A DNA stretch of 64,000 nt. Origin: an uncultured Thermoplasmatales archaeon (lineage in GTDB: Archaea > Thermoplasmatota > E2 > DHVEG-1). The translations under genes were made by a program, and so were the position numbers. The notes under the pieces were generated by a model, which was not told the origin of the DNA, searched no databases, and worked only from the letters and a program-made list of their open reading frames with translations. Location: contig CAZQXW010000003.1 in assembly GCA_964597365.1 (NCBI GenBank), positions 15,139 through 79,138 of the forward strand. Reading direction: 5' to 3'. How positions within the stretch are numbered: the first letter of the stretch is position 1; each line of letters starts with the position of its first letter. Shown here in pieces: positions 43,567 to 63,505 of the stretch.

Positions 43567-45450
43567 TTATTTCTCCTCCTTTACATGAATTGCACCAAAA
43601 GGACAAATCGTTGCACAGTTTCCACAACCATTACACTGCTGTTCATCAATTAAGATACTTCCATCTTCACCATAATAAATTGCTGGACAGCCGAATCTCC
43701 CTATACATGTTTTACATTTCTTGCATTTTTCTTGATCGATTGTATAAACCGGAATTGCTTCTCCATGTTTTCTTTTGTCTCTGTTTTCTAAAAGAATGCA
43801 GGGTGATTTGGAAACAACTACTGCAGGCCCCTTAAAGTCAAGTGCACGTTTGTATGCTTCAGTTGTTGCTTTTATGTCATTGGGGTCTGTTATTTCAATT
43901 AGTTCTGCACCACAGCCTTTACAAACATCTTCTACAAGAATCTTTTTTGCAGGTCTGCCCATTCCATCGAATTCGGTTCCAGGATGTGGTTGATGGCCTG
44001 TCATAGCAGTTGTTCTATTGTCAAGAACAGTGATTACCAAATCATGGTTGTGATGAACTGCGTTTACAAGGGGCGGTATTCCGCTATGGAAAAATGTTGA
44101 ATCTCCCATGAAACTGATTATTTTTTTATCGGTTGCCACTGCAAGACCACATGCCGTTCCTGCGTTACTGCCCATACAAAGAAGCAGGTCTGCCATTTCA
44201 AGTGGTTTTTCACGACCAAGTGTATAACAGCCGATATCTGTTGGATAAATCACACCTTTGGGTTGTGCTTTTTTTGCCGCATAATAAGTTGCTCTATGCG
44301 GACAACCTGGACAAAGGGCCGGTGGTCTGCTGGGAAGCTTTATATCTGATTTTTTTGGGTTTTTGTATGTTTTGTTTACTTTGAATATTTTACAAAATGC
44401 ATCTGAAACTATATCTGGATTGTATTCGAATAGCCTTGAGAAATGCCCTGTTGATTTGCCTAGTATTTTTACATCAACACCCAGATCATAAGCTAATGTT
44501 TTGAATTGATTTTCAAGAATTGGTTCAAGTTCTTCTACAATTACTATATTTTTACATGATTTCATGAACTTTTCACACATTTTTCGAGGAAGTGGGTTGC
44601 TCATTCCAAGTTTTAAAATTCTAACATCAAGATTTAGATCCTCAGCTACTTCTTTTACATAGTTATACGCAACGCCAGATGTAACAATACCCCAGTCTTT
44701 CGGTTTTCCTACTTCGATTATCTTGTTAAAAGGCGATTTTTCTGCAATTTGCTCTGCTTTAACTAGCATTTTTAAAAGCTCTGGATGACGTGCTCTTGCT
44801 ATCGCAGGAGTTGTCACCCACATTGGGCTTTTTTCAAAGTTACCTTTCTTTCTAGGTGCTTTAATTTTTTCTAAATCAATTGGGCCTCTTACATGGTTAA
44901 GTCTAGTTGTAGTTCTAAGAAGTATGGGTGACTTTAGTTCTTCAGATATTTCAAAACCAAGCCGAGTCATTTCTTTTGCTTCATTTGGTGTTGAAGGCTC
45001 AAACATTGGAGCTCCACTAAAAAGTGCATAGTATCTGTTATCTTGTTCATTTTGAGATGAATGACATGATGGGTCATCTGCAGAAATTATTACATGCCCC
45101 CCAACGCAACCAATATACATGTATGTCATGAATGTATCAGCTGCGACATTAAGGCCAACATGTTTCATGCAAGTAAGAGCGCGAAGTCCAGATATAGCTG
45201 CTGCTCCTGCTACTTCAAGTGCTACTTTTTCGTTTGTTGAGTATTCGAAATAATAGCTTGGCTCTTTTTTTTGTTTTGTAAAATGTTTTGCTATATGTGA
45301 AAAAGTATCTGCAATCTCTGAAGAAGGTGTCCCTGGATAAGTTGTTGCAACGTCAACTCCTGCCTCTATTGCACCTCTTGTAATTGCTTCGTTTCCAAGT
45401 AAAAGTATCTTTTTTTTAGGTTTGTCTTCTAATATTTCCATTTTTATCAT
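43567..45450 (-). CDS. iorA: Indolepyruvate:ferredoxin oxidoreductase subunit alpha
   Basis: 627 aa. TPP-binding region (GCPHRATYYA, DIGCYTLG, GDSTFFHSG) and C-terminal 2x[4Fe-4S] (CKKCKTCIGRFGCPAI, CNGCGNCATICPFGAI). Confidence 0.95.
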   Translation of the reverse strand: MIKMEILEDKPKKKILLLGNEAITRGAIEAGVDVATTYPGTPSSEIADTFSHIAKHFTKQKKEPSYYFEYSTNEKVALEVAGAAAISGLRALTCMKHVGLNVAADTFMTYMYIGCVGGHVIISADDPSCHSSQNEQDNRYYALFSGAPMFEPSTPNEAKEMTRLGFEISEELKSPILLRTTTRLNHVRGPIDLEKIKAPRKKGNFEKSPMWVTTPAIARARHPELLKMLVKAEQIAEKSPFNKIIEVGKPKDWGIVTSGVAYNYVKEVAEDLNLDVRILKLGMSNPLPRKMCEKFMKSCKNIVIVEELEPILENQFKTLAYDLGVDVKILGKSTGHFSRLFEYNPDIVSDAFCKIFKVNKTYKNPKKSDIKLPSRPPALCPGCPHRATYYAAKKAQPKGVIYPTDIGCYTLGREKPLEMADLLLCMGSNAGTACGLAVATDKKIISFMGDSTFFHSGIPPLVNAVHHNHDLVITVLDNRTTAMTGHQPHPGTEFDGMGRPAKKILVEDVCKGCGAELIEITDPNDIKATTEAYKRALDFKGPAVVVSKSPCILLENRDKRKHGEAIPVYTIDQEKCKKCKTCIGRFGCPAIYYGEDGSILIDEQQCNGCGNCATICPFGAIHVKEEK

Positions 45451-47770: not shown

Positions 47771-49858
47771 TTATTTTTTCTTTTTTTCTGGCGGTAGCGG
47801 TGGTTTTTTAATCTGAAGTCTTAGTTGGCATTTAAGACATCTTTGTGCTTCTTTTGCTGCCTCATCTTCACAAAGACATTGTTCTACTTGTTTGAAACCA
47901 GGTACTCTTTCTTTTACAGAAATTTTCGTAATCTCTGCTCTTTTTCTATCTGGAAATCCTTCATCACGGCCTATACATGGATCTGCTTCATCGTCTGGGT
48001 AAAGCTGCTGATCGATTATTCCATCTCCACCAAGATATTTGTCAATTGATTTTGCGGCAAGTCTTCCTCCTTGAACTGCCCATATTACTGTTTGTGGGCC
48101 GGTTACAAGGTCCCCACCTGCAAAAACACCTTTCTTCGAGGTTTCTTGGGTTTCTTCCTCTGCTAAAACTCGGCCTCTCTTATTTAGTTCAACGCCAAAT
48201 CCTTCAGCATCGCATCTCTGGCCGATACCAAATATAAGTCTGTCAAGATCTAAAATAAATTCAGATCCTTCTATTGGAACCGGCCTTCTTCTACCACTTG
48301 AATCAGGTTTTCCAAGTTCCATTTTAATGCATTCAACTTTTAATTTATCTTTGTCTTTAATGATTTTAGTAGGATTTGTAAGAAATAGCATCTCAACGCC
48401 TTCATCTATTGCATCTTCTACTTCGTGTGCATATGCTGGCATTTCTTTTTTGGTTCGTCTGTAGATTATTTTTACAGATTTTGCTCCTTTCCTAAGCGAA
48501 CATCTTGCGATATCTATTGCAACGTTTCCTCCGCCTACAACACCTATATCTCCTTTTAAATCAACGTTTTTTCCAAAGTTTATTTGCCTTAGTGTTTTTA
48601 TTCCATCTAGAACTCTTGGATCATCTTCTCCTTCAATGCCCATTGACCATCCTTCTGGTGCCCCCATCGCAAGATAGGTTGCGTCAAATCCTTGCTTGAA
48701 AAGTTCGTCGGTTGATTCTATCTTTGTATTGCATTTGATTTTTACACCAATGTCTTCTATTTCTTTTATCTCGCTTTCAAGTGCCTCTGGAGGTAGGCGA
48801 TAATCTGGTATTCCTGCCTTAAGCATTCCACCAGGTTTTTCTAGCATGTCAAATACTGTTACATCGTGTCCTTTAAGTTTTAAAAACCATGCTGCTGTAA
48901 GTCCCGATGGGCCTGCTCCTACAATTGCTACTTTTTTACCTGTAGGCTTTGCAATTTTAAGTTTTTCTTTCCAGGATTTATCATCGTTTTCTGCTACAAA
49001 ACGCTTTAGTTCTCTGATAGAGATTGGTTTGTTTATCTCAGTTCGTGAGCATTCATCTTCACAGGGATGATTGCAAACTAAACCGAGTGAATGAGGAAAT
49101 GGAAACTTTGATCTAATTACAGCAAGAGAGTCTTGATGTCTTCCTTCTGCAATGTATCTAACATATCTTGGAATGTCTGTTTTTGCAGGGCAGCCATGTT
49201 TGCATGGTATGAGCTTTTCTTCTCTTGTTTTTTCTTCGGTTTCTTCTTTGTCTACAAGTGCTCCCGATGGACATACCTCTACACATGCTCTGCAGAATTT
49301 GCAACCTGAGTCTTTTAATTCTGAGTCTCTTGTAGTTCCTACAACTGTGTCTATGCCTCGGTTGATAAGCCCTATTGCACCTACCCCTCGCACTTCCTGA
49401 CACATTCTTACGCATCGTCCGCAGAGAATGCATTTGTCAAGATCTCTTATGAATAGTGGGTCTTCTGAATAAATCGGCAACTCTCTTTTCTCAGGAGTGT
49501 AATTTGATAATATTTCGTTTACACCAACATAATCCACGACTTTTTTTAGATCAGAAGAAGGAGGTACATCCTTTGGATAATTTGAAAGAATAAGCCAAAT
49601 CAGGTTCTTCCTTAATTTCTGTAATTCTTTAGTATCTGTTTTTACAAACATTCCTTCAGATACTTTAGTAGTGCAAGATGTTGGAAAGCCCCTCATCTTT
49701 TCTATTTCTACAACACAAAGCCTACACGCAGCAATCGGCTTTAAGTTAGGATGATAACAAAGATTCGGAATGTATATTCCATTATCTGTTGCTGCCTCTA
49801 GGACGGTTTGGCCTTCTTTTGCATTTATTTTTTTTCCATCAATGGTTAATTTGATCAT
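47771..49858 (-). CDS. Iron-sulfur flavoprotein: N-terminal [2Fe-2S] and [4Fe-4S] (HydA/NuoG-N-terminus-like) domains fused to a glutamate-synthase-small-subunit (GltD)-like NAD(P)H:FAD oxidoreductase
   Basis: 2Fe-2S CYHPNLKPIAACRLCVVEI. 4Fe-4S CILCGRCVRMC and CKFCRACVEVCP. GltD-type Fe-S CKHGCPAKTDIP...CNHPCEDEC. FAD/NADPH Rossmann folds KKVAIVGAGPSGLTAA and DIGVVGGGNVAIDIA. Confidence 0.9.
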   Translation of the reverse strand: MIKLTIDGKKINAKEGQTVLEAATDNGIYIPNLCYHPNLKPIAACRLCVVEIEKMRGFPTSCTTKVSEGMFVKTDTKELQKLRKNLIWLILSNYPKDVPPSSDLKKVVDYVGVNEILSNYTPEKRELPIYSEDPLFIRDLDKCILCGRCVRMCQEVRGVGAIGLINRGIDTVVGTTRDSELKDSGCKFCRACVEVCPSGALVDKEETEEKTREEKLIPCKHGCPAKTDIPRYVRYIAEGRHQDSLAVIRSKFPFPHSLGLVCNHPCEDECSRTEINKPISIRELKRFVAENDDKSWKEKLKIAKPTGKKVAIVGAGPSGLTAAWFLKLKGHDVTVFDMLEKPGGMLKAGIPDYRLPPEALESEIKEIEDIGVKIKCNTKIESTDELFKQGFDATYLAMGAPEGWSMGIEGEDDPRVLDGIKTLRQINFGKNVDLKGDIGVVGGGNVAIDIARCSLRKGAKSVKIIYRRTKKEMPAYAHEVEDAIDEGVEMLFLTNPTKIIKDKDKLKVECIKMELGKPDSSGRRRPVPIEGSEFILDLDRLIFGIGQRCDAEGFGVELNKRGRVLAEEETQETSKKGVFAGGDLVTGPQTVIWAVQGGRLAAKSIDKYLGGDGIIDQQLYPDDEADPCIGRDEGFPDRKRAEITKISVKERVPGFKQVEQCLCEDEAAKEAQRCLKCQLRLQIKKPPLPPEKKKK

Positions 49859-51597
49859 TCTATCGCCATAAATTTACATGCATTTATACAGGATTTACAT
49901 TTGATGCATTTATCCTTGTCAATTTTTGCGTATTCTTTCTTTTTCCATTCGATTGCATCAACTGGGCATGCTTTGAAGCATACTCCACATTTTACACATT
50001 TATCTTCATTGACTTCAAATTTTATGAGATTTGTACAAACTGTAGCAGGGCAGTTTTTGTCTTTAATATGTGACTCGTATTCATTTGAATAGTATTTCAT
50101 GGTTGTAAGAACGGGGTTTGGTGCTGTATTTCCAAGACCACATAATGCTGTTTTTTTTATCGTATCACTCATCTCTTTTAGAAAAATGAGGTGCTCCTCT
50201 GTACCATTTCCTTCTGTAATTGTCTCAAGAATCTCATACATTCTTTTAAGACCTATTCGGCATGGAACGCATTTGCCACAGGATTCTGCAACTGTAAAGC
50301 TTAAAAAGTATCTAGCAACGTCAACCATACAGGTTTTCTGATCCATTACAACCATTCCACCAGAGCCCATTATTGCTCCAGTTTCATTTATGGATTCATA
50401 ATCAATGGGCGTATCAAATAACTTTTCAGGAAGACATCCTCCTGAGGGGCCTCCAAGTTGTACTGCTTTTATTGGTATTTTTTTGTCAAGTGCTCCTCCA
50501 CCTGCGCCTTCAAGAAGGTTTCTTATTTTTGTACCCATTGGAACTTCTACAAGCCCGGTATTTTTGATTTTTCCTGCAAGTGCAAAAACCTTTGTTCCCT
50601 TGGATTTTTTGTATCCTATGGATGAAAACCAGTCTGCACCTTTGAGTATGATATGTCTTACATTTGCAAGGGTTTCAACATTGTTTATGTTTGAAGGTTT
50701 TTCCCAAAGCCCTTTTTGTGCTGGAAACGGTGGCCTTGGATTTGGCATACCTCTCCTTCCTTCAATTGAAGCCATCAGAGCAGTTTCCTCACCGCAGACA
50801 AATGCCCCTGCTCCTTCTTTTACAATCATGTCAAAGTCAAAGCCTGAATTTTGTATGTTTTTTCCTAAGTAGCCTTTCTTTCTTGCCTGCTGCATTGCAA
50901 TATTTAATCTTTTAACTGCAAGAGGATACTCTGCACGACAATATATGTAGCCATGTGTTGCACCAATTGCATATGCTCCTATGACCATTCCTTCGATTAC
51001 TGCATGAGGGTCTCCTTCGAGGATGCTTCTATCCATAAAAGCACCGGGATCACCTTCATCAGCATTACAGATTATGTATTTTTCATCTGCCTTCGCGTCT
51101 TTTGCAAACTGCCATTTAAGCCCTGTTGAAAAACCAGCCCCGCCTCTACCACGAAGTCCTGAGTTTTTCATCTCATCGATTATCTCTTGTGGCTTCATTT
51201 TAAACGCTTTTTCAAGTGCTTTATAACCTTCCGTCTCAATGTATTCTTTAATATCCTCAGGATTGATTTCTCCGCAGTTTTTTAGAACTATTCTTTGCTG
51301 GTTTTTAAAAAAGTTTTTGTAATCTTCTCCTGCAAGTAGTTTTTCAACTGGTTTGTTTTCTATGAGGTGCTCTTTTACTATTTGTTCTACGTTTTCTGGT
51401 TTTACAAATTCATAGGTTGTTCTTTTGCCATCGATTATAATATCAACTAAAACATCTCTGAAAAGTCCTCGATCACCTACTCGTACTACTTCAAAATCGA
51501 GTTTGTTTTTCTTGACCTGGTTTTCAAAGTTATCTGCGACTTTTTCTGCTCCTGCTGAAACCCCGCTTGTACCAACGCATACTAGAACTTTGTTCAT
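49855..51597 (-). CDS. NuoF-like NAD(H)-binding FMN flavoprotein (HydB/bifurcating-type, with C-terminal 2x[4Fe-4S])
   Basis: NuoF core (GLRGRGGAGFSTGLKW, NADEGDPGAF, SCGKCVPCR). Thioredoxin-like N-terminal extension. C-terminal ferredoxin motifs CVKCGVCFKACP and CIKCKSCINAC. 4-nt overlap with the downstream gene. Confidence 0.95.
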   Translation of the reverse strand: MNKVLVCVGTSGVSAGAEKVADNFENQVKKNKLDFEVVRVGDRGLFRDVLVDIIIDGKRTTYEFVKPENVEQIVKEHLIENKPVEKLLAGEDYKNFFKNQQRIVLKNCGEINPEDIKEYIETEGYKALEKAFKMKPQEIIDEMKNSGLRGRGGAGFSTGLKWQFAKDAKADEKYIICNADEGDPGAFMDRSILEGDPHAVIEGMVIGAYAIGATHGYIYCRAEYPLAVKRLNIAMQQARKKGYLGKNIQNSGFDFDMIVKEGAGAFVCGEETALMASIEGRRGMPNPRPPFPAQKGLWEKPSNINNVETLANVRHIILKGADWFSSIGYKKSKGTKVFALAGKIKNTGLVEVPMGTKIRNLLEGAGGGALDKKIPIKAVQLGGPSGGCLPEKLFDTPIDYESINETGAIMGSGGMVVMDQKTCMVDVARYFLSFTVAESCGKCVPCRIGLKRMYEILETITEGNGTEEHLIFLKEMSDTIKKTALCGLGNTAPNPVLTTMKYYSNEYESHIKDKNCPATVCTNLIKFEVNEDKCVKCGVCFKACPVDAIEWKKKEYAKIDKDKCIKCKSCINACKFMAIE

Positions 51598-52068
51598 CTA
51601 TTTGTCCTCCTTTTTGTATTTCTTGAGCATCTCATCCATCATCTGAATTGTACAGTTTCCATAGAAATCGTCATCTACTTGGACTACGGGTGCCATCCCA
51701 CAACATCCAAGACACGCTACTCGTTCTAGTGAAAACATTCCATCCTCTGTTGTTTCACCATCTTTTATTCTAAGCTTTGTTGAAAGATAATCTAGTATTT
51801 CTTTTCCACCCATGACATGACACGCGGTTCCCTGGCAGACACGTATTGTATGTTTTCCTCTGGGCGTTAGGTAAAATTGTGTGTAAAAAGTAAGGACTCC
51901 ATAGATATCTACTGGGAAAATGTTTAATTCTTTTGCAACAAGGTCTACTGCTTCTTCAGGAACGTAACCATATTCTTCCTGAATGTCTTGCAGAAGAGGT
52001 ATTAGTACTCCTTTCTTTTTACCATGTTTTTTTATCAGCTTTTTTGTTTTAGAAAGGTCGACAGACAT
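51598..52068 (-). CDS. NuoE-like [2Fe-2S] thioredoxin-fold subunit (HydC-type)
   Basis: CQGTACHVMGG...CLGCCGMAPVV gives the NuoE 2Fe-2S ligands. 156 aa. It abuts the NuoF-like gene. Confidence 0.9.
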   Translation of the reverse strand: MSVDLSKTKKLIKKHGKKKGVLIPLLQDIQEEYGYVPEEAVDLVAKELNIFPVDIYGVLTFYTQFYLTPRGKHTIRVCQGTACHVMGGKEILDYLSTKLRIKDGETTEDGMFSLERVACLGCCGMAPVVQVDDDFYGNCTIQMMDEMLKKYKKEDK

Positions 52069-52170: not shown

Positions 52171-53010
52171 TTGAACTGTTTATTTGTCTCAGATTTGCAT
52201 GGTAATAAAAAAAGATACAAAAAGTTGTTTGGAATAGTTGATGAGAAAAAGCCTGATGCGGTTTTTTTTGGCGGGGATCTTTTACCAAATTCCTTTAGAA
52301 TAGATTGTGATATTGACAAGTTTTTAGAAGAGGAGTTTTTTTCAAAAGTTAAAAAATACAACGAGAAAACTCGTTTTTTCGTAATAATGGGAAATGATGA
52401 CCCACGGGTTTTCGAAAAGCATTTCATAGATGCTGATAAAAAGGGTTTAATTGAGTATGTTTCAGAAAAAACAGTAAAATTTAATGATTTATTTGTAACT
52501 GGTTATCCTTTTGTCCCTCCCACTCCTTTTCAGCTGAAAGACTGGGAAAGATATGATGTTTCTCGTTTCGTTGATGTTGGCGGAATTTCTCCTGAGGAAG
52601 GTATAAGAACAGTTGATGTTGATAAAGACCTGGTTCGTTTTTCCACTATTTCAGATGATTTGAAAAATATTGTGAAAAATGCACCTGCTGAAAAAACCAT
52701 TTTTTTATTTCATTCGCCGCCGTATAATTCAAACCTTGATCGTGCAGGTCTTGATGGGAAAATGGTGGATAGTGCTCCAATGGATGTTCATGTAGGAAGT
52801 ATTGCAATTCAGAGGTTTATTGAAAAATACCAGCCATTTTTAACTTTACATGGACATATACATGAAACTGTTAGTTTGACGGGTCAGTGGAGAGAAAAAT
52901 TTGGAAAAACAATTTCATTCACGGGCTCTTCATATGATTCAGAATTAGTAATAATTGATTTTGATACGAATAATTTAGAAAAAACAGAAAGAATGGTATT
53001 TACAATCTAG
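52171..53010 (+). CDS. Calcineurin-like metallophosphoesterase
   Basis: LFVSDLHGN, GGDLL, GNDD, and C-terminal GHIHE motifs. TTG start preceded by AGGTG. The 3' end overlaps the convergent giant gene by 4 nt. Confidence 0.8.
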   Translation: MNCLFVSDLHGNKKRYKKLFGIVDEKKPDAVFFGGDLLPNSFRIDCDIDKFLEEEFFSKVKKYNEKTRFFVIMGNDDPRVFEKHFIDADKKGLIEYVSEKTVKFNDLFVTGYPFVPPTPFQLKDWERYDVSRFVDVGGISPEEGIRTVDVDKDLVRFSTISDDLKNIVKNAPAEKTIFLFHSPPYNSNLDRAGLDGKMVDSAPMDVHVGSIAIQRFIEKYQPFLTLHGHIHETVSLTGQWREKFGKTISFTGSSYDSELVIIDFDTNNLEKTERMVFTI

Positions 53011-56000
53011 TTTTTCTTAATTTTTAACTTTTCAATTCTTGAATAAGGACTTGTTAAGTGTGTGGCCCAGCTGGTCTTGTTTTTGATGTCTTTATCTGTT
53101 ATAATGTGCACGTCGAGCAAGTTTTCTGTTTCCACGCCCGTCCTTTCTTCGTTTTCCCTTGAAAGTTTTTTCCCTTCTTCTTCAAACCACTCTAGGAGTA
53201 AGTCTTTTTCTTCATCTGTCCCTTTGAAATGAACTATTAAATCTATGTCGCTTGCCGGTCCTGCTTCGCCTGTTTTTGTACTGCCTATCAGATAAATTTC
53301 CTCTATTCCGTATGCTTCTGGATCTATTTTTTCTGCTATTTCTTCTGCTTTTTGCATTCTCCAGCTCCAGTGATCCGGGGGTTTAAGATAACCAAGTGCT
53401 TCGTTTGCATCTCCATCCATTATAATTGATAGTGTTCCTCCCTCCTCTAAATCAGATGTTTTTACAAGTTTTACCACATTTTGATATTTCTGGTATTTTG
53501 GAACTTTTTTGGGTAAGTGGTTTTTTGCATCCAAAATTTTCTTTTCGTTGAAAATTATTCCTGATTCATCAGGATAAAGTGGCAAATATTGGATATCTGC
53601 TTCCACAAGATCCTGGAAGAAATGAGTTCCAAAGGAAAGCTCTGGAGTGTATTCTCCTTTTTTCTTTGCAATTTCTACTAAAAGCGATGTGTTGTTAATA
53701 TCTCCATATTTTACTGGCACACCTAATTTCATATCTCCTCTACTACCCCATCGACCAGGACCCATAAGGATGAATCTTCTTCTCGGCAGTTCCTGGTTTA
53801 GATGGTTTATTATTTTGGCAATTTTTTGCATTTCTTCACGTGATTCTAATTTTGAGTATTCTTCTGGTGAGACGTATACGATGTAGCATATGTTTTCTAT
53901 CTGACTTGTTGTAACATATTTGTTTGATGAAAATATTTTTCTCTGATTAGGTATATTTTTTGGAACTGGTTTTCTCTCTATTCCTCTACCTTGACTCTGT
54001 GGTCTGCATTGTAGGAAATATAGTTCTTTTCCGTCTGATGCGAATTCTACATCTACAGGTGTTCCTATTTTTTGTTCCAAAATATTTAGAATTTTTTTCA
54101 TTTTCTTGAGAAAATCTGTTTTAGAAAAAAGATTTTCAAATGTTATTACAAAATCTTCGTTGCTAATATCTGTTAAAATATTTGGCTGTGATAATGTACC
54201 ATCTTTGTAGATTGAAATTATTCTATCTATTTTTGGGATTTCGTCTGAGTGTTTTTTGAAAAAATCAATTGCATCAACTGTTTCTATTGCTCTTGTTTTT
54301 AGGTTTATTAAATCCATATAACGTGGGGAGTATTGTACTCTTTCAGCTGCAAGTGTATTTACTCTAAGATTTGGCCTCATCGGGGATATTAGTATAGGAT
54401 AATCATTTCCAACCCGATCTACTGCACGTGTGCCAAGACCTGGAACTAGCCTTATTATTCCATCTTCTCTTCTTACCCTTGGGGACCAGCGAAATTCGCT
54501 TCTACTGAATGCAACGCCTGCGTATGCTGGTAGATAATAATGACCGATTTTTCTCCCTACTACTTGCTGAATTAGAATGCCCATTTCTTCACTGAAGTCA
54601 AGGAGCCCTCTTTCTCTTCTGTATTCAATAGGATCTGGGCCAAAAGTAGAAGCATATACTTCAGATATTGCATCCATGAGACTATAAAGTCTTTCATCTT
54701 CGCTTCCTGTATTTGGAACGAAAAGGCTTTTATATTTTCCCGAGAAGGCTGCTCCAAAACTATCTTCTAAAAGGCTTGATGATCTTATAATTATGGGGCT
54801 TCCTTCCAAATCTCTTATTATTCTTCTAAAACCTTCTACTATCTCATGTGGAAATGTCGCATTTTTAAAGACTTGTTCTAAAAATGGCTGATCTTTGCTT
54901 ATCTGATCTGGTTCTAAATATTTTATATGAAATGCTTCATCAAGATCGTTATAATGAATGAATTCGCGTAGTGTATCTGATGTTACATACCAGCTCTTTG
55001 GAACGGTTATGTCTTTTAATGTATCATCACTTTCTTTTGCTTCTTCAAGTATTTTTTCAGCAAGAAATACTCCGCTTGTTTTTCCTCCAAATTTACCTGG
55101 GCCTTGAGTTGGGCCTACAACATTACCTAAAAGACTTACAAAATCAGATAGTTTTATGAAGTGTTTTGCAACATTTACATATTCAAGTCTGTCTGTGAAA
55201 AATCTTCTGATAAGCGCAGTTCTAATTGTTGTTTTATCCTCAGGAGATAGTGTTTTTTCTACATCTTCATTTTCAAAGAATCTATTTAGTTCCTCTGTTA
55301 TTTCTGAGAGAGGCATCCCTGGTTTCTGAGATGTTAAAAGAAGTGGTCTTGCTTTGTCTTGTTTGAGCCAGACCTGAAACATTTTTGAGATTTCTTCATC
55401 TGTAAGGGTTTCCTTGGCCATTTCAAATATTTGTTTTTGAATGTGTTTGAGCGATTCTAAATCCTGACGTGGATTGGGCATGTTAATTCCACACCATTGG
55501 CTGTCTGCTGCATTTCTATCAACAGGGCATATGCTCCCCAATAGCATTGTTATTCTTTCATTTTCATACCTGTATAGATAATAAACCATTTTACGAGTTA
55601 TTCTCAGAAGGGTTCTAGGATCTGTTTTTAATAAAAGATCTATTATTACTTCCCAGTCTTTTTTTGTTTCTTCTAAAATGGGTTCGCCAGTAAGTGTTTT
55701 CTGAAATTTAGTGAGTTTTTTCCTCTGTGCTTCAAGTTCTTGTTTTATCGCGCTTTCACTTACATAATTTCCAAGTAGATCTGCTATTGCATCTATGAGT
55801 CGTCTTTCATCTATCAAGAAAGGCCCTTCATCAATCTCAGGTTTTTCTTCCAGGTAAAAAACTTCCAGACTTCCTACTTTTTTGTCATCTGAGATTATGT
55901 TGCTTACCTGACTCCATTTGGTGATTTTGAAATTTTTAGTCCTATGTTCCTTGCCATCTATCGTAATTCTAGCACATGTGATTTCAGGATACTGCCATGC

Positions 56001-56153
56001 CGGAGGGATTAATTCGAGTATTTTTTGTATTGAATCCTGGAAAGAAATAGACTTATCCTTTACTATATCTGTTAAATTGTATAGACAATTTAGCTCCTTT
56101 ACTCGCTCTTTTAAGGCATCTATACCTTGGTTGCCATTCTTTGCTTTTGTCAT
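53007..56153 (-). CDS. Giant multidomain protein (1048 aa): GAF-like N-terminus, PPDK_N-type ATP-grasp nucleotide-binding domain (PEP synthase/PPDK N-terminal family), His-less swivel-like segment, C-terminal minimal nucleotidyltransferase (MNT)
   Basis: PPDK_N hallmarks KFGGKTSGVFLAEKIL...ITVPKSWYVTSDTLREF, IIIRSSSLLEDSFGAAFSGKYKSLFVPN and EFASDGKELYFLQCRPQ. Downstream block FILMGPGRWGSRGDMKLGVPV...FGTHFFQDL is shared with the neighbouring protein. C-terminal NTase motif IYLIGSTKTGEAGPASDIDLIVHF (GS-x9-DxD). N-terminal LKERVKELNCLYNLTDIV is a GAF-type preface. Confidence 0.85.
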   Translation of the reverse strand: MTKAKNGNQGIDALKERVKELNCLYNLTDIVKDKSISFQDSIQKILELIPPAWQYPEITCARITIDGKEHRTKNFKITKWSQVSNIISDDKKVGSLEVFYLEEKPEIDEGPFLIDERRLIDAIADLLGNYVSESAIKQELEAQRKKLTKFQKTLTGEPILEETKKDWEVIIDLLLKTDPRTLLRITRKMVYYLYRYENERITMLLGSICPVDRNAADSQWCGINMPNPRQDLESLKHIQKQIFEMAKETLTDEEISKMFQVWLKQDKARPLLLTSQKPGMPLSEITEELNRFFENEDVEKTLSPEDKTTIRTALIRRFFTDRLEYVNVAKHFIKLSDFVSLLGNVVGPTQGPGKFGGKTSGVFLAEKILEEAKESDDTLKDITVPKSWYVTSDTLREFIHYNDLDEAFHIKYLEPDQISKDQPFLEQVFKNATFPHEIVEGFRRIIRDLEGSPIIIRSSSLLEDSFGAAFSGKYKSLFVPNTGSEDERLYSLMDAISEVYASTFGPDPIEYRRERGLLDFSEEMGILIQQVVGRKIGHYYLPAYAGVAFSRSEFRWSPRVRREDGIIRLVPGLGTRAVDRVGNDYPILISPMRPNLRVNTLAAERVQYSPRYMDLINLKTRAIETVDAIDFFKKHSDEIPKIDRIISIYKDGTLSQPNILTDISNEDFVITFENLFSKTDFLKKMKKILNILEQKIGTPVDVEFASDGKELYFLQCRPQSQGRGIERKPVPKNIPNQRKIFSSNKYVTTSQIENICYIVYVSPEEYSKLESREEMQKIAKIINHLNQELPRRRFILMGPGRWGSRGDMKLGVPVKYGDINNTSLLVEIAKKKGEYTPELSFGTHFFQDLVEADIQYLPLYPDESGIIFNEKKILDAKNHLPKKVPKYQKYQNVVKLVKTSDLEEGGTLSIIMDGDANEALGYLKPPDHWSWRMQKAEEIAEKIDPEAYGIEEIYLIGSTKTGEAGPASDIDLIVHFKGTDEEKDLLLEWFEEEGKKLSRENEERTGVETENLLDVHIITDKDIKNKTSWATHLTSPYSRIEKLKIKKN

Positions 56154-59134
56154 TTCTCACCTTTTTTAATTATTGCTTTTCCCTTTTTAGCATCAATTAT
56201 TGCTTCAAGAGGTTTATTGGTTTTGATATGTTTAATAAATTCGGTTTCTTTCAATGTTTCTTGTTTTTTAAGCCAATTGTGGTTTATATCCTCTGGTTTT
56301 TTTGTAATCAGGTATCCAACCTGTGATGCTATCATGTCATGGAAGAAGTGTGAGCCTTGTGATGGGTCTATATGTCTTTCTTTGTAGGGTGTTTCAACTA
56401 TTACTTTTGCACCTGCAATATCACTCCAGACAACTGGTATACCAAGCCAGGGATCTGAAGAGCCCCATCGGCCAGGTCCTATCAATATATATGGTCTGTT
56501 TTCATCCATTAATTCGAGGTTTATTTTCTTGATTTCATTTACAACCTTTGCAGAGTTGGACATATCAAATTTACTTGGATCAATGTATAATATATCTGAT
56601 AAGTCTTTTATAACTCCGTTTCCAAGACAGTTTTCACTGTAAAACAATATTTCTTTACGAGGGATTTTGTCTATATCGATGTTTATCTTTTCATCTGGAG
56701 GGACCATGTTTCTTATCTGAAGTATTATCAGCTCTGATGGTTCGCCTCCCTCTTTAGAGGTGTTTAGCGCGAATTCGATTTCTACGGGATATCCCAATGC
56801 TATCTCGCTGATTGAAAGAATTAATTTTAAAGCCTTTGCAAGTGGGATTGAATCATAGTTTAGAATTGGTGAGAAGTCTACTACTAGATAACCCTTGTCA
56901 TATATACCCGGATAAAGGCTATCATCCTCAGGAATATATGTTGATACTACCTTGTCAAGTATACCGTGTTTTTTGGCGACATCAATTTCTAATTTATCCA
57001 GAGATGTTTCTTCATCATATTCAACGAACTTGTAAATTGACCTGAGGTTTAACGCATAAAAACTTGATTGGGCATATTTCATGTAGTCCTTTGGAGTGCC
57101 AAATAATGGTCTTTTAGGTTTACTTGGGCAGAATGCAAAGCTGCTGCCACCATCCACAATTGCTTTTCCAAGACCGAGTGCAAGATAAGCAATACCCTCC
57201 TCAGGTTTGCATGACCCGGAAGGGTAATAATTATAAGATTTTGCAACTCCTGAGATTGTTGGATAAAAATAATTATCATGACGAGTTCCGGCTACTTCTT
57301 GAATTAGAACCGCCATTTTTTCGTCCCCAATATGTTTTGGAGTGTTTTTAATATATGTTCTTGCCTGCTCAAAATAAGTAGAGGCATAGACATGCTTTAT
57401 AGCATTGCATACCTCCTGAAAACGGAGGTCTGCTTCCCATGACTCATTTGGAAGAAGCATTGATGCATATATTCCTGCAAAAGGTTGCATCAAAGAGTCT
57501 TCAAGAAGACCGGAGGATCGCGCAATAAGTGGTTTACGGGTTTTTTTTATAAAAGAGCGTAAATCGCCTAAAACTGTTGCAGGAAGACTTGCATGCATAA
57601 ATTTTGAAGATATTCTTTCGTTGGATAATGTTGCAAAATCCAGGTCAGTTAGATTGTTGTGATTCATGAACATATCAAAAACATCTGTAGAAAGAACAAT
57701 ACTTCTTGGAACCGTAATCCTAAGCCCTGGAAACATATCTTCTGTAATATATTTAGAAAGAAGTTTTGCAACAAATGCTATACCACGGGCTTTACCGCCA
57801 AGTGCTCCATCACCAATACGACTAATTTTTACATAAGGATCATCTATCTTTTGAGAGAAACTAGCAATTGCTGACTGGTTAACTGAGTATTTGTAGTCTT
57901 CAATTACCTCTATCAGTTTTTTCTTTAACGCTTCTTCATTATCAAAACGTTCTTCTGCTTCAGAGCATTTTTTTGCAAGATCTATTTCCCCTATGCTCTT
58001 AATCCATCGTGATATCTCATGATTCTGTGCACAATTATAAATGAGTTTGCTGTCAATTTTATGTATCTCTTTTTGTAGTTCTTCAATCTGAGAGACCTGT
58101 GAGATTTCTTTTCCGTTTTTATCTTTGAAAATAAGTTTATGCGGGCCAAGGTTTTTTTTAATAAATTTTCTCAGAATGTTCATTAGGTTGTTTGATGTTT
58201 TTGAAATGATTTTGGTATTTTTGTTTTCAAGTTCTTTTTTGTCAATAGGTTCTGAGGATTGGATAATTATTGGTAAATCTGGTTTTTCTTCAGATACTTT
58301 ATTTGCCATTTCAATTCCTATTTGTTTTCTATCACCGTTTGTCTTCAGATAATTGTCTGATATTATAAACAAAAGGTCGTCTTTATATTGATTATAAAGC
58401 CTATTTGCCTGCTCGTAATCTCCGGTATGAATGATAAAAGGACGGTTTTTGAACCTCAGTGTTTTTTGCTCGCAGCCCAGATTGTTTGTTATTATTTGTT
58501 TTAAATAGTTGCAAATTTCTTCGTTTATAAGGGATAGATAACTTGAGTAATGTTGTATTGAATCTTCGATTAATAAAATACAGTTTTTTTTATCAATCTT
58601 TGAAAGCTTTTCCAGGTTTTTTTTATCTTCAAAAATTTGAACGATGCTTAGTATTATTTTCCCGTCTCCGTTCCAGGTAAAATATTTATCGATTTTTACT
58701 TCAGAGTCTTCTAATAATCTTGAGATTTCTGAAATCTTGTTATCTAATAATACTAAAGGCGCGTTTGTTTTTGCTTTTATATTTTTTGTAAGTTGATCTA
58801 TTTTTTTATCAGGCGGCTTGTTGAATAGAATTATCAAATCAAAATACTCATTAGAAATTTTTTCAATTACTTGCTCTTCAGTTTCTACATGGGTAATTAC
58901 TGGATTTTGCCCTTCTTCAAAGTTGCACCATTCTGAAAAAAGAGCGTTGAGCCTTCCTTCTTCTTCTAAAAGAAAATAGTCAAAAGAAGAAGAAAGAAGT
59001 AATATTTTTTTAATTTTGTATTGTCTAAATTCCTTTACAAGGTCGTAGCATGCTTGTTTGTTTATATCTGTATCTGTGCCTGTTATTTCTTGTATTTTTT
59101 CTTTTATCTTTTGTTCTTTATCATTTACAAGCAT
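56150..59134 (-). CDS. Giant multidomain protein (about 994 aa): two N-terminal receiver(REC)-like domains followed by PPDK_N-type ATP-grasp domain and His-less swivel-like segment
   Basis: REC-like 1 is degenerate (KILLLSSSFDYFLLE...FDLIILFNKPPD...APLVLLD). REC-like 2 (CILLIEDSIQ...LLFIISDNYLKTNGDRKQIGIEMANKV...LPIIIQSS). PPDK_N hallmarks GGKARGIAFVAKLL, LIARSSGLLEDSLMQPFAGIYASMLLPN, EFALNTSKEGGEPSELIILQIRNM. Shared block YILIGPGRWGSSDPWLGIPV...QGSHFFHDM. The ORF-track TTG start at 59146 is replaced by ATG 59134. The stop overlaps the downstream gene start by 4 nt. Confidence 0.85.
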   Translation of the reverse strand: MLVNDKEQKIKEKIQEITGTDTDINKQACYDLVKEFRQYKIKKILLLSSSFDYFLLEEEGRLNALFSEWCNFEEGQNPVITHVETEEQVIEKISNEYFDLIILFNKPPDKKIDQLTKNIKAKTNAPLVLLDNKISEISRLLEDSEVKIDKYFTWNGDGKIILSIVQIFEDKKNLEKLSKIDKKNCILLIEDSIQHYSSYLSLINEEICNYLKQIITNNLGCEQKTLRFKNRPFIIHTGDYEQANRLYNQYKDDLLFIISDNYLKTNGDRKQIGIEMANKVSEEKPDLPIIIQSSEPIDKKELENKNTKIISKTSNNLMNILRKFIKKNLGPHKLIFKDKNGKEISQVSQIEELQKEIHKIDSKLIYNCAQNHEISRWIKSIGEIDLAKKCSEAEERFDNEEALKKKLIEVIEDYKYSVNQSAIASFSQKIDDPYVKISRIGDGALGGKARGIAFVAKLLSKYITEDMFPGLRITVPRSIVLSTDVFDMFMNHNNLTDLDFATLSNERISSKFMHASLPATVLGDLRSFIKKTRKPLIARSSGLLEDSLMQPFAGIYASMLLPNESWEADLRFQEVCNAIKHVYASTYFEQARTYIKNTPKHIGDEKMAVLIQEVAGTRHDNYFYPTISGVAKSYNYYPSGSCKPEEGIAYLALGLGKAIVDGGSSFAFCPSKPKRPLFGTPKDYMKYAQSSFYALNLRSIYKFVEYDEETSLDKLEIDVAKKHGILDKVVSTYIPEDDSLYPGIYDKGYLVVDFSPILNYDSIPLAKALKLILSISEIALGYPVEIEFALNTSKEGGEPSELIILQIRNMVPPDEKINIDIDKIPRKEILFYSENCLGNGVIKDLSDILYIDPSKFDMSNSAKVVNEIKKINLELMDENRPYILIGPGRWGSSDPWLGIPVVWSDIAGAKVIVETPYKERHIDPSQGSHFFHDMIASQVGYLITKKPEDINHNWLKKQETLKETEFIKHIKTNKPLEAIIDAKKGKAIIKKGEK

Positions 59135-59167
59135 TATATTCAACAAACCCGTTTAGGGTGTTTGTCT

Positions 59168-60454
59168 CTATATCCATCCTCTGAGTTTGCATGATTCTGC
59201 TACTCTTTGGATTGCGATCATATATGCCGCATCGCTTATTCTAAGTTTCTTTCTCTGTGCAAGCTCCCATACTTTGTAGAAGGCATCTGTCATTTTGTTA
59301 TCCAGTTTTCCAAGGACTTCTTCTTTTGTCCAATAGTAATTTTGGTTTGATTGTACTTGTTCGAAGTAACTGCAGACAACACCGCCTGAGTTTGCAAGAA
59401 AGTCAGGTATTACTACTACATCGTTTTTTGTAAGTGTATCTTCTGCTTCGGGAGTAACTGGGCCATTTGCACCGCATATTACTATTTTGACACTCGGTTT
59501 GATTTCTTTTACATTGTCTTTTGTAATTGAGTTTTCAAGTGCTGCAGGTATAAGAATGTCTACTTCGTGTTTTAGCCAATCTGATCCTGGCAGCCTCTTG
59601 TATCCCATTTTTTCTGCTTTTTGTTTGTCGATTGTTCCAAATCTGTCTGTTATTTTTCTTAGTGCTCCAAGGTCTATTCCATCTTCTTTATAATAAGAGT
59701 ATGCTTTTCCATCTTTTTGATCCCAACATGAGACACTTACTACTTTTCCACCGTAATCGATGAAAAGTTCTGCTGCATATTGGGCGACATTTCCAAAACC
59801 TTCTATTGCAGCTTTTGCTTTTGTTATGTCAATTCCCATTTCTTTTAATGATTCTCTAAGTTGATATACAAGGCCATAACCTGTTGCCTCAGTTCTTCCC
59901 AGTGATCCGCCAAGTGCTACCGGTTTTCCAGTAATAACACCAGGATATTGTCCTCCCTGAATTGCCTGAAATTCATCCATCATCCATAGCATGTGTTGTG
60001 CATTTGTCATAACGTCTGGTGCAGGGACATCACGAACAGGACCTATGTCTCGTGCGATCTGTCTTATCCATCCACGACATATGTTTTCTTGTTCTCTTTC
60101 AGAAAGATCATGTGGATCACATATTACTCCGCCTTTGCCTCCACCAAGAGGAATATCAGCAACTGCACATTTCCAAGTCATCCACATCGAAAGTGCTTTG
60201 ACTGTGTCTGCTGTTTCTTGTGGGTGGAATCTTATTCCTCCTTTACAAGGGCCTCTTGCATCGTTGTGTTGCACTCTAAATCCCCTAAAAACTCGTGTTG
60301 TGCCATCATCCATTTTTACAGGAATTGAGAAATGATATTCTCTGAGAGGATCTCTTAAAAGTTCACGTGTTGGTTCATCTAAATCTAACATATCAGCAAT
60401 TCTATCGAATTGTTGTTGGGCCATTTTAAATGGGTTATATCCTTCTTTTGCCAT
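59168..60454 (-). CDS. gdhA: Glutamate dehydrogenase (archaeal/Pyrococcus-type hexameric GDH)
   Basis: GPCKGGIRFHP, Lys-containing catalytic region, GFGNVAQYAAEL Rossmann fold. The ORF-track TTG start is replaced by the ATG at 60454, 8 nt after GGAGG. Confidence 0.95.
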   Translation of the reverse strand: MAKEGYNPFKMAQQQFDRIADMLDLDEPTRELLRDPLREYHFSIPVKMDDGTTRVFRGFRVQHNDARGPCKGGIRFHPQETADTVKALSMWMTWKCAVADIPLGGGKGGVICDPHDLSEREQENICRGWIRQIARDIGPVRDVPAPDVMTNAQHMLWMMDEFQAIQGGQYPGVITGKPVALGGSLGRTEATGYGLVYQLRESLKEMGIDITKAKAAIEGFGNVAQYAAELFIDYGGKVVSVSCWDQKDGKAYSYYKEDGIDLGALRKITDRFGTIDKQKAEKMGYKRLPGSDWLKHEVDILIPAALENSITKDNVKEIKPSVKIVICGANGPVTPEAEDTLTKNDVVVIPDFLANSGGVVCSYFEQVQSNQNYYWTKEEVLGKLDNKMTDAFYKVWELAQRKKLRISDAAYMIAIQRVAESCKLRGWI

Positions 60455-60587
60455 ATTTTTTTCCTCCAAATATAAGCAATCCGGCGATAAAGGAACACCT
60501 ATATATAATCTCCTAATGAAAAGTTCGACAAAAAGTGTAATTTGCTTCTAAACAATCTAGAAATAAAATAGAGAAAAAATAAAGGTT

Positions 60588-61961
<1,374 letters not shown>

Positions 61962-62167
61962 TTAATGTTATATATTAAAACTTTGCCACCAATAATTGTA
62001 TTAAAGCTCAGATTGGTGTGTTTTTTTCTACAATTATCTAGTTTTTAGTAGAGAAAAGCAAAAAAATGTTCTCTTTTTAATATTTAATTAGCTTTTAATA
62101 ATTAAAGATGCATACTATTTTTTGAGGGAGAAAGTACCGTCCTAGTTTTAATAGAGGTTTGATTTGG

Positions 62168-63505
62168 ATGAAAAGTGTTGTTTATGATAAGGAAAAAGTT
62201 TTAGAAACAGTAGAGAAGGAAAAAGTTTTGTTTATTCGTCTACAGTTCATAGACATTCTTGGCATGCCAAAAAATATTGTTATTCCACCATCCCGGCTTG
62301 GCGATGCTCTAGATAAGGGAATTCCTTTTGATGGTTCTTCAATCGCAGGTTATGCAACTATTGAAGAATCTGATAAGATTGCAAAGCCCGATCCTAAAAG
62401 CTTTGTAATATTACCAGAGGAAATTGATAAAAGGAAAACCGCAAAGCTAAACTGTGATATTTACGAGCCAAGTGGCAAACGCTTTGAGGGTGATACTAAA
62501 TATATCCTTGAAAAAGTTGTAAATAAAGCAAAAAAAATGGGCTATATCTATAATACTGGGCCTGAATGCGAGTTTTTCTTATTCAAAAAAGAAAATGACG
62601 AATATACAACTATTCCAAATGATGCTGCAGGATATTTTGATTTATCTCATAGAGATTTGGCAGAGGGCGTTCGTGCTGATGTTTCACTTGCCCTTAATGC
62701 GTTTGGAATTAGTACATATACTTCACATCATGAGGTCTCAGATGGGCAACATGAAATAAATTTCAAATATGCAGATGCTCTTACCACAGCAGACAGAGTT
62801 ATAACTCTAAAGTATGTCACTAAAGTAATTGCAAGAAAGCATAACCTACATGCAAGTTTCATGCCAAAGCCTTTGTTTCGAAAAGCAGGAAGTGGTATGC
62901 ATACACATCTAAGTCTTTTTACAAAAAATGGCAAAAATGCTTTTTATGACCCTAAAGCCAAGAACCAATTGAGTAAGACCGCGCTTTATTTTATAGGTGG
63001 GCTTTTAAAATATGTAAAAGAGATATGTGCTATTTTAAATCCTACAGTAAACAGTTATAAGAGGCTTGTTCCCGGTTACGAGGCCCCTACATATATATCA
63101 TGGGCAAATCGAAATAGAAGTGCGCTTATCAGAATACCTACAGGGCGAGATGATAGCACCCGTTGTGAGTTACGTAATCCCGATCTTTCGGGAAATCCCT
63201 ACTTGCAGTTTGCAGCTATGCTTGCAGCAGGTTTGAGCGGTATCGAAAATAAGGTTACTCCTCCAGAGCCTGTTGAAAAAAATATTTATTCACTTTCTGA
63301 AAAAGAAAGAGAAAAACATGGCATTCATCATCTACCTGAAAGCTTAGGTCATGCAATAGGACTCATGCAGGATAGTGCTCTTCTAAAAGAAATACTTGGG
63401 GACCATGTTTTTAATAATTTCTTGTATGTTAAAAGAAGTCAGTGGGAAGAATATAGAACTCAAGTTACGCAATGGGAGATTGAAAAATATTTACCTATTC
63501 TATAA
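62168..63505 (+). CDS. glnA: Glutamine synthetase type I
   Basis: FDGSSIAGYATIEESD, ATP-binding KPLFRKAGSGMHTHLSLF and overall GSI-alpha length. There is no adenylylation-loop insertion. The ORF-track TTG start is replaced by the ATG at 62168. Confidence 0.95.
   Translation: MKSVVYDKEKVLETVEKEKVLFIRLQFIDILGMPKNIVIPPSRLGDALDKGIPFDGSSIAGYATIEESDKIAKPDPKSFVILPEEIDKRKTAKLNCDIYEPSGKRFEGDTKYILEKVVNKAKKMGYIYNTGPECEFFLFKKENDEYTTIPNDAAGYFDLSHRDLAEGVRADVSLALNAFGISTYTSHHEVSDGQHEINFKYADALTTADRVITLKYVTKVIARKHNLHASFMPKPLFRKAGSGMHTHLSLFTKNGKNAFYDPKAKNQLSKTALYFIGGLLKYVKEICAILNPTVNSYKRLVPGYEAPTYISWANRNRSALIRIPTGRDDSTRCELRNPDLSGNPYLQFAAMLAAGLSGIENKVTPPEPVEKNIYSLSEKEREKHGIHHLPESLGHAIGLMQDSALLKEILGDHVFNNFLYVKRSQWEEYRTQVTQWEIEKYLPIL

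Follow-up and report, generated by a model that had tools for sequence, protein, structure and literature searches.

What could be the task of two large proteins, each built around an ATP-grasp domain of the PPDK_N type, that an uncultured Thermoplasmatales archaeon encodes in overlapping genes beside two glutamate dehydrogenases (GDHs)? The question is raised by a stretch of 64,000 nucleotides (hereafter the window; NCBI GenBank assembly GCA_964597365.1, contig CAZQXW010000003.1, positions 15,139 to 79,138 of the forward strand), the coordinates of which are used throughout. Gene A (53007..56153, minus strand, 1048 amino acids) codes for a GAF domain, an all-α domain, PPDK_N, a conserved block following the latter (hereafter C-block) and a nucleotidyltransferase (NTase) of the MNT type, and gene B (open reading frame (ORF) 56150..59146, minus strand, 998 amino acids) for a pseudo-receiver, a receiver, a linker, PPDK_N and a C-block. 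The two proteins represent a PPDK_N phosphotransferase-type architecture combined with an undescribed domain and reside in an undescribed, widely conserved gene cluster linked to GDH. The answer that we favor, with a probability of about 0.4, is that A and B would constitute a sensor-controlled, ATP-dependent covalent-modification system acting on the co-encoded GDH. An initial annotation, made from the nucleotide letters alone, had already proposed a signalling or modification system, a proposal that fits both the GAF/receiver (REC) sensors and the pairing of the NTase with a phosphoesterase; it had also called the two proteins “giant”, while at ~1000 amino acids they are only large.

A and B are paralogs over a core of ~530 amino acids, within which they are 30% identical. 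The first part of this core is the ATP-grasp domain, located at 53958..55088 in A (minus strand; residues 356–732; Pfam PF01326, E 1.5e-55) and at 56699..57805 in B (minus strand; residues 448–816; Pfam PF01326, E 5.5e-33), and its presence as a complete domain in both proteins had been correctly recognized. The motifs GGK358, R457-S-S..E463-D464, D701-x-E703-F and Q715-x-R717 of A are all intact also in B (GGK, RSS..ED, ExEF and QxR), and the same set, i.e., GGK, RSS..ED, [DE]xEF and QxR, is kept in every one of the 78 A-type and 56 B-type sequences compared. We take these residues to be the equivalents of K22, R92, D321, E323, Q335 and R337 of PPDK. The ATP-grasp sites of A and B are both predicted to be catalytically intact, and a PPDK_N with an intact ATP/Mg site is a feature that the two proteins share with PEP synthase (PEPS), PPDK and RPH.

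The second part of the core, the C-block, invariably sits after PPDK_N and occupies 53499..53951 in A (minus strand; residues 735–885, with GPGRWGS and SFGTHFFQD) and 56237..56683 in B (minus strand; residues 822–970, with GPGRWGS and SQGSHFFHD). The initial annotation held that this block resembles the PEP-utilizing swivel domain, that it lacks the phospho-histidine and that a dikinase reaction is for this reason unlikely; none of these statements survives. The G[ST]HFF motif itself holds a histidine, His844 in A (codon 53622..53624) and His933 in B (codon 56348..56350), which occurs in 631 of 632 unique C-block sequences from the A, short-B and REC-type B proteins of archaea and bacteria, and with this invariant residue the argument against a dikinase reaction falls. 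The GxGRWG[ST] motif is essentially invariant in the same set, and the family amounts to 1861 cluster representatives at 50% identity. As to the likeness with the swivel domain, PF00391 (PEP-utilizers) does not match the C-block at E-values up to 1, and hhalign, run between the C-block alignment and an alignment of 39 non-redundant swivel segments out of 111 canonical ones fetched by DNA pattern, gave a probability of 1.3% over 19 columns (LGVPV facing ELGxxAIVG) with the histidine left outside the alignment; comparisons of the C-block with REC and with NTase, which served as negative controls, scored 0.5–1.0%. A comparison of the C-block with the PDB by sequence profile yielded no match, and no fold match was found either. 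The identification with the PEP-utilizer swivel is thus ruled out by the PF00391, PDB and hhalign results. No Pfam or NCBIfam model covers the C-block and, judging from its AlphaFold2 (AF2) model in A (pLDDT 81), which places the histidine at the N-terminus of a helix preceded by a low-confidence loop, it is probably an α/β domain, hitherto undescribed.

The association with GDH emerges from the gene neighborhoods of other genomes. A pattern scan for C-block stretches, in which each GTDB species was represented by a single genome, yielded at least 600 of them, and the counts given hereafter refer to the best 80 of these, all from species-representative genomes, the ORFs of each locus being called and classified by BLAST with the window proteins as queries. 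These loci belong to Thermoplasmatota and to more than 10 bacterial phyla, i.e., Acidobacteriota, Aminicenantes, Ignavibacteriota, Bacteroidota, Zixibacteria, Planctomycetota, Calditrichota, Chloroflexota, Bacillota (Syntrophomonas), Krumholzibacteria, Bradymonadales and others. No other gene accompanies A as constantly as gdh1 does: at 55 of the 62 loci having sufficient upstream DNA, a gene of this type lies in the 3.6 kb upstream of A, its product (428 amino acids) being 61–87% identical to that of the window gdh1, and in the archaeal loci only 8–57 nucleotides separate it from the cluster. Close full-length homologs of A and B (52–99% identity) are plentiful in metagenome-assembled genomes (MAGs) of Thermoplasmatota, and the loci of these relatives preserve the order gdh2-gdh1-B-A-phosphoesterase.

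The linkage between A and B likewise extends to other genomes, the gene immediately upstream of A being of the B type at 36 of 64 loci; 27 of these 36 neighbors consist of PPDK_N and C-block only (~585 amino acids) and 9 bear receivers, while in 16 loci gdh1 immediately adjoins A without any B. In at least 10 proteins of ~1630 amino acids the B core with its C-block is fused, in gene order, to the part of A that runs from GAF to NTase, and these natural fusions argue, by the Rosetta-stone principle, that A and B work together. In bacteria a REC-type B often comes directly after a gene of the gdh2 type, as in four loci (L025, L038, L045 and L063), three of them (L025, L038 and L063) displaying the arrangement gdh1>Bs>A>MPE<Br<gdh2<, where Bs and Br are the short and the REC-type B and MPE the metallophosphoesterase; thus, with gdh1 linked to A and gdh2 to REC-type B, both paralog classes are attached to GDH genes. 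A second, divergent REC-type B (36–38% core identity) lies past the phosphoesterase in L009 (13387..16344), L011 (11872..14835) and L012 (17111..20065), next to gdh2 in the first of these; no such second copy occurs among the window ORFs of at least 100 amino acids downstream of the phosphoesterase. The constant unit is gdh plus A, to which B, the NTase with the phosphoesterase, and the receivers are add-ons, and the sequence gdh, optional B, A, optional metallophosphoesterase is a widespread uncharacterised cluster of which the window contains the archaeal version.

The GDHs deserve attention in their own right. GDH stands at the branch point between carbon and nitrogen metabolism, and its control in prokaryotes is viewed as mainly transcriptional and allosteric. 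In the window, gdh1 (59168..60469, minus strand) encodes a hexameric-type enzyme of 433 amino acids of the Pyrococcus/Thermococcus/RocG type (Pfam ELFV_dehydrog_N and ELFV_dehydrog; PDB 1euz, E 1.8e-124), gdh2 (60588..61928, minus strand) a GdhA-type enzyme of 446 amino acids identified by Pfam and, divergently from the latter, glnA (62159..63505, plus strand; Pfam) encodes glutamine synthetase. Common to the 61 cluster-linked GDH sequences are signature residues and, at residues ~249–257 of Gdh1, a short insertion (W249-D-Q-x-D...Y257), which is absent from the Thermococcus (1euz), Pyrococcus (1gtm) and 7mfm enzymes; these 61 form a subfamily of their own with a surface insertion that could be a docking or modification loop. 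The link to nitrogen genes noted at the outset holds for gdh and not for glnA, which among the loci surveyed adjoins the cluster only in Thermoplasmatota relatives (L003, L004) and, not being kept outside this group, is ruled out as a conserved partner. The same applies to PII/Amt: glnK (P-II) and amtB immediately follow gdh-Bs-A on an Ignavibacteriota-like contig (L085, 12473..14597), a single occurrence, both being absent from the other 80 loci and from the window.

The flanks of the core in A comprise a sensor on one side and a second enzyme on the other. The N-terminal region (55749..56132, minus strand; residues ~8–135), previously described as GAF-like, does have the GAF fold and is followed by the all-α domain (55125..55658, minus strand; residues ~166–343, delimited from the AF2 secondary structure), in which W167, N224, P226, W262, D266 and RRFF316–319 are invariant across archaeal and bacterial homologs and for which no match to Pfam or to any other family was found. 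Two REC-type B proteins (P0307 and P0327, 1524 and 1557 amino acids, respectively) are headed by 3–4 tandem copies of the A-type GAF module, which indicates that this sensor is a mobile input module within the A/B family. At the opposite end of A, the existence of a minimal Pol-β-type NTase (53010..53381, minus strand; residues 925–1048), suspected from the start, is borne out by a match to NTP_transf_2 (PF01909; residues 942–996, 40.7 bits against a cut-off of 21), by the invariance of G957-S958, D969-I-D971 and D1014, which constitute the motif of this class, and by profile matches to PDB structures such as 2rff, kanamycin NTase and MntA; NTP_transf_2 and Polbeta are matched in 44 of 44 A homologs.

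The sensory part of B consists of two receiver-like domains, of which the first had been deemed non-phosphorylatable. This is indeed so: in REC1 (58622..59014, minus strand; residues ~45–175) the B homologs have, according to a profile alignment with response-regulator structures, an invariant Phe108 at the position of the acceptor Asp, whereas REC2 (58157..58585, minus strand; residues ~188–330) possesses the canonical acidic pair, acceptor Asp, Thr/Ser and Lys, with D264 (codon 58355..58357), S297/S298 and K316 invariant in 48 homologs and E194 and D195 conserved in at least 90% of them. Matches to Response_reg are sub-threshold (~28 bits against 30.2) in 31 of the 48 homologs and fall on both domains (residues ~73–154 of the homologs for REC1; 235–302 of P0140 and 243–299 of the window B for REC2), and a profile search with the receiver region of B retrieved response-regulator structures at E ~7e-4. 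The linker between REC2 and PPDK_N (residues ~335–440, ~100 amino acids) gives weak, partial matches to DUF5752 (PF19027) in 23 of the 48 homologs (best E 4.6e-4), a family on which a literature search found no paper.

Downstream of A, and convergent with it, lies the gene of a calcineurin-like metallophosphoesterase (52171..53010, plus strand, 279 amino acids), the assignment of which is based on Pfam Metallophos (PF00149, E 2.2e-15, 58 bits against a cut-off of 21.5) and on the metal-binding motifs DLHG, GD, GNDD, H and GHIH. The third of these departs from the GNH[DE] usual in the superfamily, the position of the catalytic His being taken by Asp, and in the PDB only Aquifex aq_1956 (2yvt, E 0.45) shows any sequence similarity, which is faint. 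At 35 of 61 loci an ortholog lies downstream of A, in convergent orientation at 32 of them, so that the linkage noticed in the window is real but, at ~57%, not constant. Its distribution follows that of the NTase: the phosphoesterase is present at 35 of the 55 loci with an NTase-bearing A and at none of the 6 with an NTase-less A (Fisher p = 0.004, uncorrected for phylogeny), and the two are co-inherited. The six NTase-less A proteins (L024, L028, L040, L064, L077 and L081), none of which has a metallophosphoesterase neighbor, end ~40 residues past the C-block; in L024 and L064 they are paired with a REC-type B and both gdh types are close by.

In the PPDK_N enzymes that have been characterised, ATP loads a carrier histidine which delivers the phosphate at a second site, and this relay is sometimes divided between two proteins (PMC4844700, PMC12167813). 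A relay of this kind is suggested for A and B by the two ATP-grasp sites, both intact by prediction, by the placement of a domain with an invariant histidine where a carrier domain would be expected, by inputs typical of signalling (GAF, REC, pseudo-REC and the tandem GAF arrays of P0307 and P0327) and by the all but obligate association with GDH genes belonging to two families. In the system that we favor A and B, in view of their adjacency and natural fusions, would associate; their ATP-grasp domains would (pyro)phosphorylate the carrier histidine of the C-block (His844 in A, His933 in B), which would thereby replace the swivel domain, and the phosphoryl group would then be passed on to GDH or, in B, perhaps to or from the receiver Asp264 of the same chain. 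Where present, the MNT-type NTase of A would add a nucleotide (AMP-type) mark, and the metallophosphoesterase would remove either this mark or the phosphate, while control of the activity would fall to the sensors, GAF in A and the receiver in B, 2-oxoglutarate or a glutamine-type effector being candidates for the GAF site. As judged from its position in the cluster, the co-encoded GDH is the most probable target. The scheme taken in full, i.e., a dedicated post-translational control of GDH operated by the first protein-directed PPDK_N dikinases through a new, non-swivel phospho-His carrier (the C-block), with an MNT-type AMPylase, a metallophosphoesterase as de-modifier and gating by GAF and receiver, is considered somewhat less probable than the covalent-modification proposal as such.

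Several considerations weigh against the modification of GDH by A and B. The choice of GDH as the target derives solely from gene neighborhood and, to our knowledge, no enzyme of the PPDK_N family phosphorylates a protein. No known phospho-His carrier is homologous to the C-block, the histidine of which could therefore be catalytic or ligand-binding instead of carrying phosphate; furthermore, the alignments underlying the AF2 models are shallow (16–22 sequences). A writer/eraser scheme with all its parts is not universal, for B and the phosphoesterase are each missing beside A in ~43% of the loci, and the cultured Stygiobacter electus has gdh-A only. Finally, the locus counts are inflated by a lack of phylogenetic independence among the loci and possibly by horizontal transfer of the whole cluster.

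Alternatively, A and B could be a small-molecule dikinase of the RPH, HpeHI or phenylphosphate-synthase kind, acting on a metabolite related to glutamate or 2-oxoglutarate that would be bound by the C-block and/or the helical domain and perhaps nucleotidylated by the NTase, with the phosphoesterase operating later in the pathway. The substrates of all characterised PPDK_N enzymes are indeed small molecules or glucans, dikinases made up of two components are known (PMC12167813), and RPH-like enzymes have been described as a large unexplored group (PMC4844700); the wealth of invariant polar residues in the C-block (R, S, D, E, S, H, D, Y) is reminiscent of an active site, a tight operon linkage with a catabolic enzyme such as GDH is typical of pathways, and the host organisms are amino-acid fermenters. 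On the other hand, GAF, receiver, pseudo-receiver and tandem GAF inputs are typical of signalling proteins rather than of pathway enzymes, no substrate-binding domain of the PEPS, PPDK or RPH type is recognisable, no further pathway genes are conserved around the cluster and the NTase is of the minimal MNT/KNT type; this possibility is an unlikely one. A classical PEPS or PPDK, in particular, is out of the question for practical purposes despite the presence of PPDK_N and the database names “pyruvate, phosphate dikinase”, “pyruvate, water dikinase” and “PEP/pyruvate-binding domain-containing protein”: this identity, which the initial annotation had rightly doubted, is refuted by the domain content, which includes neither PEP-utilizers (swivel) nor PEP-utilizers_C (TIM barrel), and it is at odds with the additional GAF, REC and NTase modules. 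Pfam finds no substrate domain (PF02896 TIM barrel, RIF-binding) in A, B or 92 homologs, and the NCBIfam models for PEPS reach at most 58 bits against cut-offs of 600–1000, those for PEPS and RPH aligning, far under their cut-offs, to the N-terminal ATP-grasp part only.

A and B could also form a signal-transduction module whose output is not the modification of GDH, either as a His-Asp phosphorelay in which ATP-grasp takes the place of the HATPase kinase or as an allosteric or scaffolding regulator, with gdh merely co-expressed or with another target (transcription or other enzymes). B does carry an invariant-His domain and a canonical receiver in a single chain, the pair also has a pseudo-receiver and a GAF domain, and histidine-kinase genes occur near the cluster in two Ignavibacteriota loci; 27 of the 36 B-type partners, however, are devoid of any receiver, neither A nor B has an output domain (DNA-binding, cyclase, etc.), and the association with two GDH families favors GDH itself as the partner; a module of this sort appears rather improbable. 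More improbable still is a circuit based on a nucleotide second messenger made by the NTase or the ATP-grasp domain and degraded by the metallophosphoesterase, to which GDH or other proteins would respond allosterically, an alternative that the initial annotation had already raised. The co-inheritance of NTase and phosphoesterase and the fact that class-III phosphodiesterases belong to the Metallophos superfamily speak in its favor, but the NTase is of the minimal MNT/KNT type and not of the cyclase or CD-NTase type, the PADLOC matches concern only generic small-NTase and Metallophos domains, no receptor or effector gene is conserved and the NTase-less variants retain their linkage to gdh. A toxin-antitoxin (TA) or anti-phage defence module centered on the NTase, for which a weak match to the NCBIfam MntA antitoxin (E 1.7e-4, 21 bits against a cut-off of 60) and domain-level PADLOC matches (PDC-S09, PDC-S10) could be invoked, has very little to recommend it: A, B and their neighbors contain no HEPN domain, the NTase is only the C-terminal 12% of a 1048-amino-acid protein, the matches span only 35–80 residues, the synteny with gdh is stable across phyla and the region has no mobile-element context. 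This candidate was rejected, the matches being merely to generic domains.

How does the modification system proposed for GDH compare with systems already known? With PEPS, PPDK and RPH the two proteins share a homologous PPDK_N complete with nucleotide and Mg motifs, large multidomain size and, as far as PEPS and PPDK are concerned, a His-bearing domain right after ATP-grasp; they differ in that both the swivel phospho-His domain (PF00391, GG-x-T-S/C-H) and the substrate domain are missing and, as two of the three defining domain features thus fail, A and B should not be filed as members of these families. Like HpeHI, AcvAB and phenylphosphate synthase, they distribute PPDK_N chemistry over two co-encoded proteins (PMC12167813); in the latter systems, however, one subunit has the ATP-grasp and the other the swivel His and the substrate site, whereas A and B each have a complete ATP-grasp and a His domain of their own and occur outside any context of aromatic catabolism. 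EI-Ntr (PtsP) likewise joins a GAF domain to His transfer in nitrogen signalling, but it draws on PEP as the donor, has a TIM barrel besides its swivel His domain and hands the phosphate over to NPr, whereas in A/B the donor would be ATP via ATP-grasp, the carrier domain is a different one and there is no HPr-like partner.

The NTase side invites other comparisons. The pairs GlnE-glutamine synthetase and GlnD-PII offer the precedent of a Pol-β-superfamily NTase tied to an enzyme central to nitrogen assimilation, under a plausible logic of writer and eraser; nevertheless, A and B have no Pfam or NCBIfam match to GlnE or GlnD, their NTase is of the minimal MNT/KNT type, the linked enzyme is GDH and not glutamine synthetase or PII, and the putative eraser is a metallophosphoesterase instead of a second NTase or an HD domain. 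The type VII TA system MntA/HepT has an NTase of the same minimal fold family with the GS...DxD motif; unlike MntA, the NTase of A is fused to a 900-amino-acid enzyme, lacks a HEPN toxin and resides in a context of housekeeping metabolism. With AceK and isocitrate dehydrogenase (ICDH) the likeness is conceptual only, i.e., a dedicated modifier encoded beside a central branch-point dehydrogenase; the folds are unrelated and the analogy concerns the proposed function alone. The architecture of A/B is shared by none of EI-Ntr, GlnE/glutamine synthetase, HpeHI and AceK/ICDH, and the initial impression of an unfamiliar domain combination finds support in that no curated family corresponds to it and that a literature search found no paper describing the A/B family or the gdh-linked cluster.

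Should the proposal be correct, a dedicated modification of GDH would add a new layer to the control of nitrogen and amino-acid catabolism, spanning from Thermoplasmatota to Acidobacteriota, Ignavibacteriota, Planctomycetota and others, i.e., to microbes of anaerobic sediments and soils that live on proteins, and the “dikinase” chemistry of PPDK_N would gain a new carrier domain and perhaps a protein as substrate. On the practical side, the automatic annotation of these genes as pyruvate,phosphate dikinase or PEP synthase can generate false calls of gluconeogenesis in MAG-based reconstructions. The existence of cultured carriers, Stygiobacter electus and Rosettibacter firmus, makes the hypothesis directly testable.

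The flanks of the cluster are as initially reported, with the convergent, overlapping phosphoesterase on one side and gdh, gdh and glnA (ORFs and Pfam) on the other. B (56150..59146) and A (53007..56153) do overlap by 4 nucleotides (ATGA), the start of A being placed on the stop codon of B and preceded by a GGTGA motif, and the stop codons of A and of the phosphoesterase overlap by 4 nucleotides as well. The true start of B is most likely the ATG at 59134, 33 nucleotides past the gdh1 stop, which would yield a protein of 994 amino acids, because the homologs open with MxxNDKE and measure 994 amino acids. No histidine kinase is adjacent to the cluster in the window; a PAS-HisKA-HATPase_c kinase is encoded two genes upstream of gdh in L084 and L085, both Ignavibacteriota, the only loci where such a gene is near the cluster.

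Over the entire window the G+C content ranges from 30 to 39%, with no compositional break at the cluster, and neither tRNA genes nor Rfam families at the gathering threshold were found in these 64 kb. Other genes of the window encode GatD, NMD3, IOR-like proteins and CTP synthase; together with those relatives among the homologs that bear names, they assign the window to an uncultured member of Thermoplasmatota akin to SG8-52 / MBG-D. An IorA/IorB-like 2-oxoacid:ferredoxin oxidoreductase pair (42976..45450, minus strand), GatD (39588..40901, minus strand) and an SNF-family Na+:amino-acid symporter (35262..36698, plus strand) are compatible with an amino-acid-fermenting archaeon. Beside the cluster, three co-directional genes (47771..52068, minus strand) encode a NuoE-like 2Fe-2S protein (51598..52068), a NuoF-like FMN/Fe-S protein (49855..51597) and a GltD-like protein in which Fer2_4, Fer4, Fer4_20 and Pyr_redox_2 are fused (47771..49858), all on the minus strand. 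By its domain composition this trio resembles an electron-bifurcating NAD(P)H:ferredoxin transhydrogenase of the Stn/Nfn type and could be a source or sink of the NAD(P)H of GDH; at the equivalent position, L001 and L003 carry a two-gene SudBA/NfnAB-like pair.

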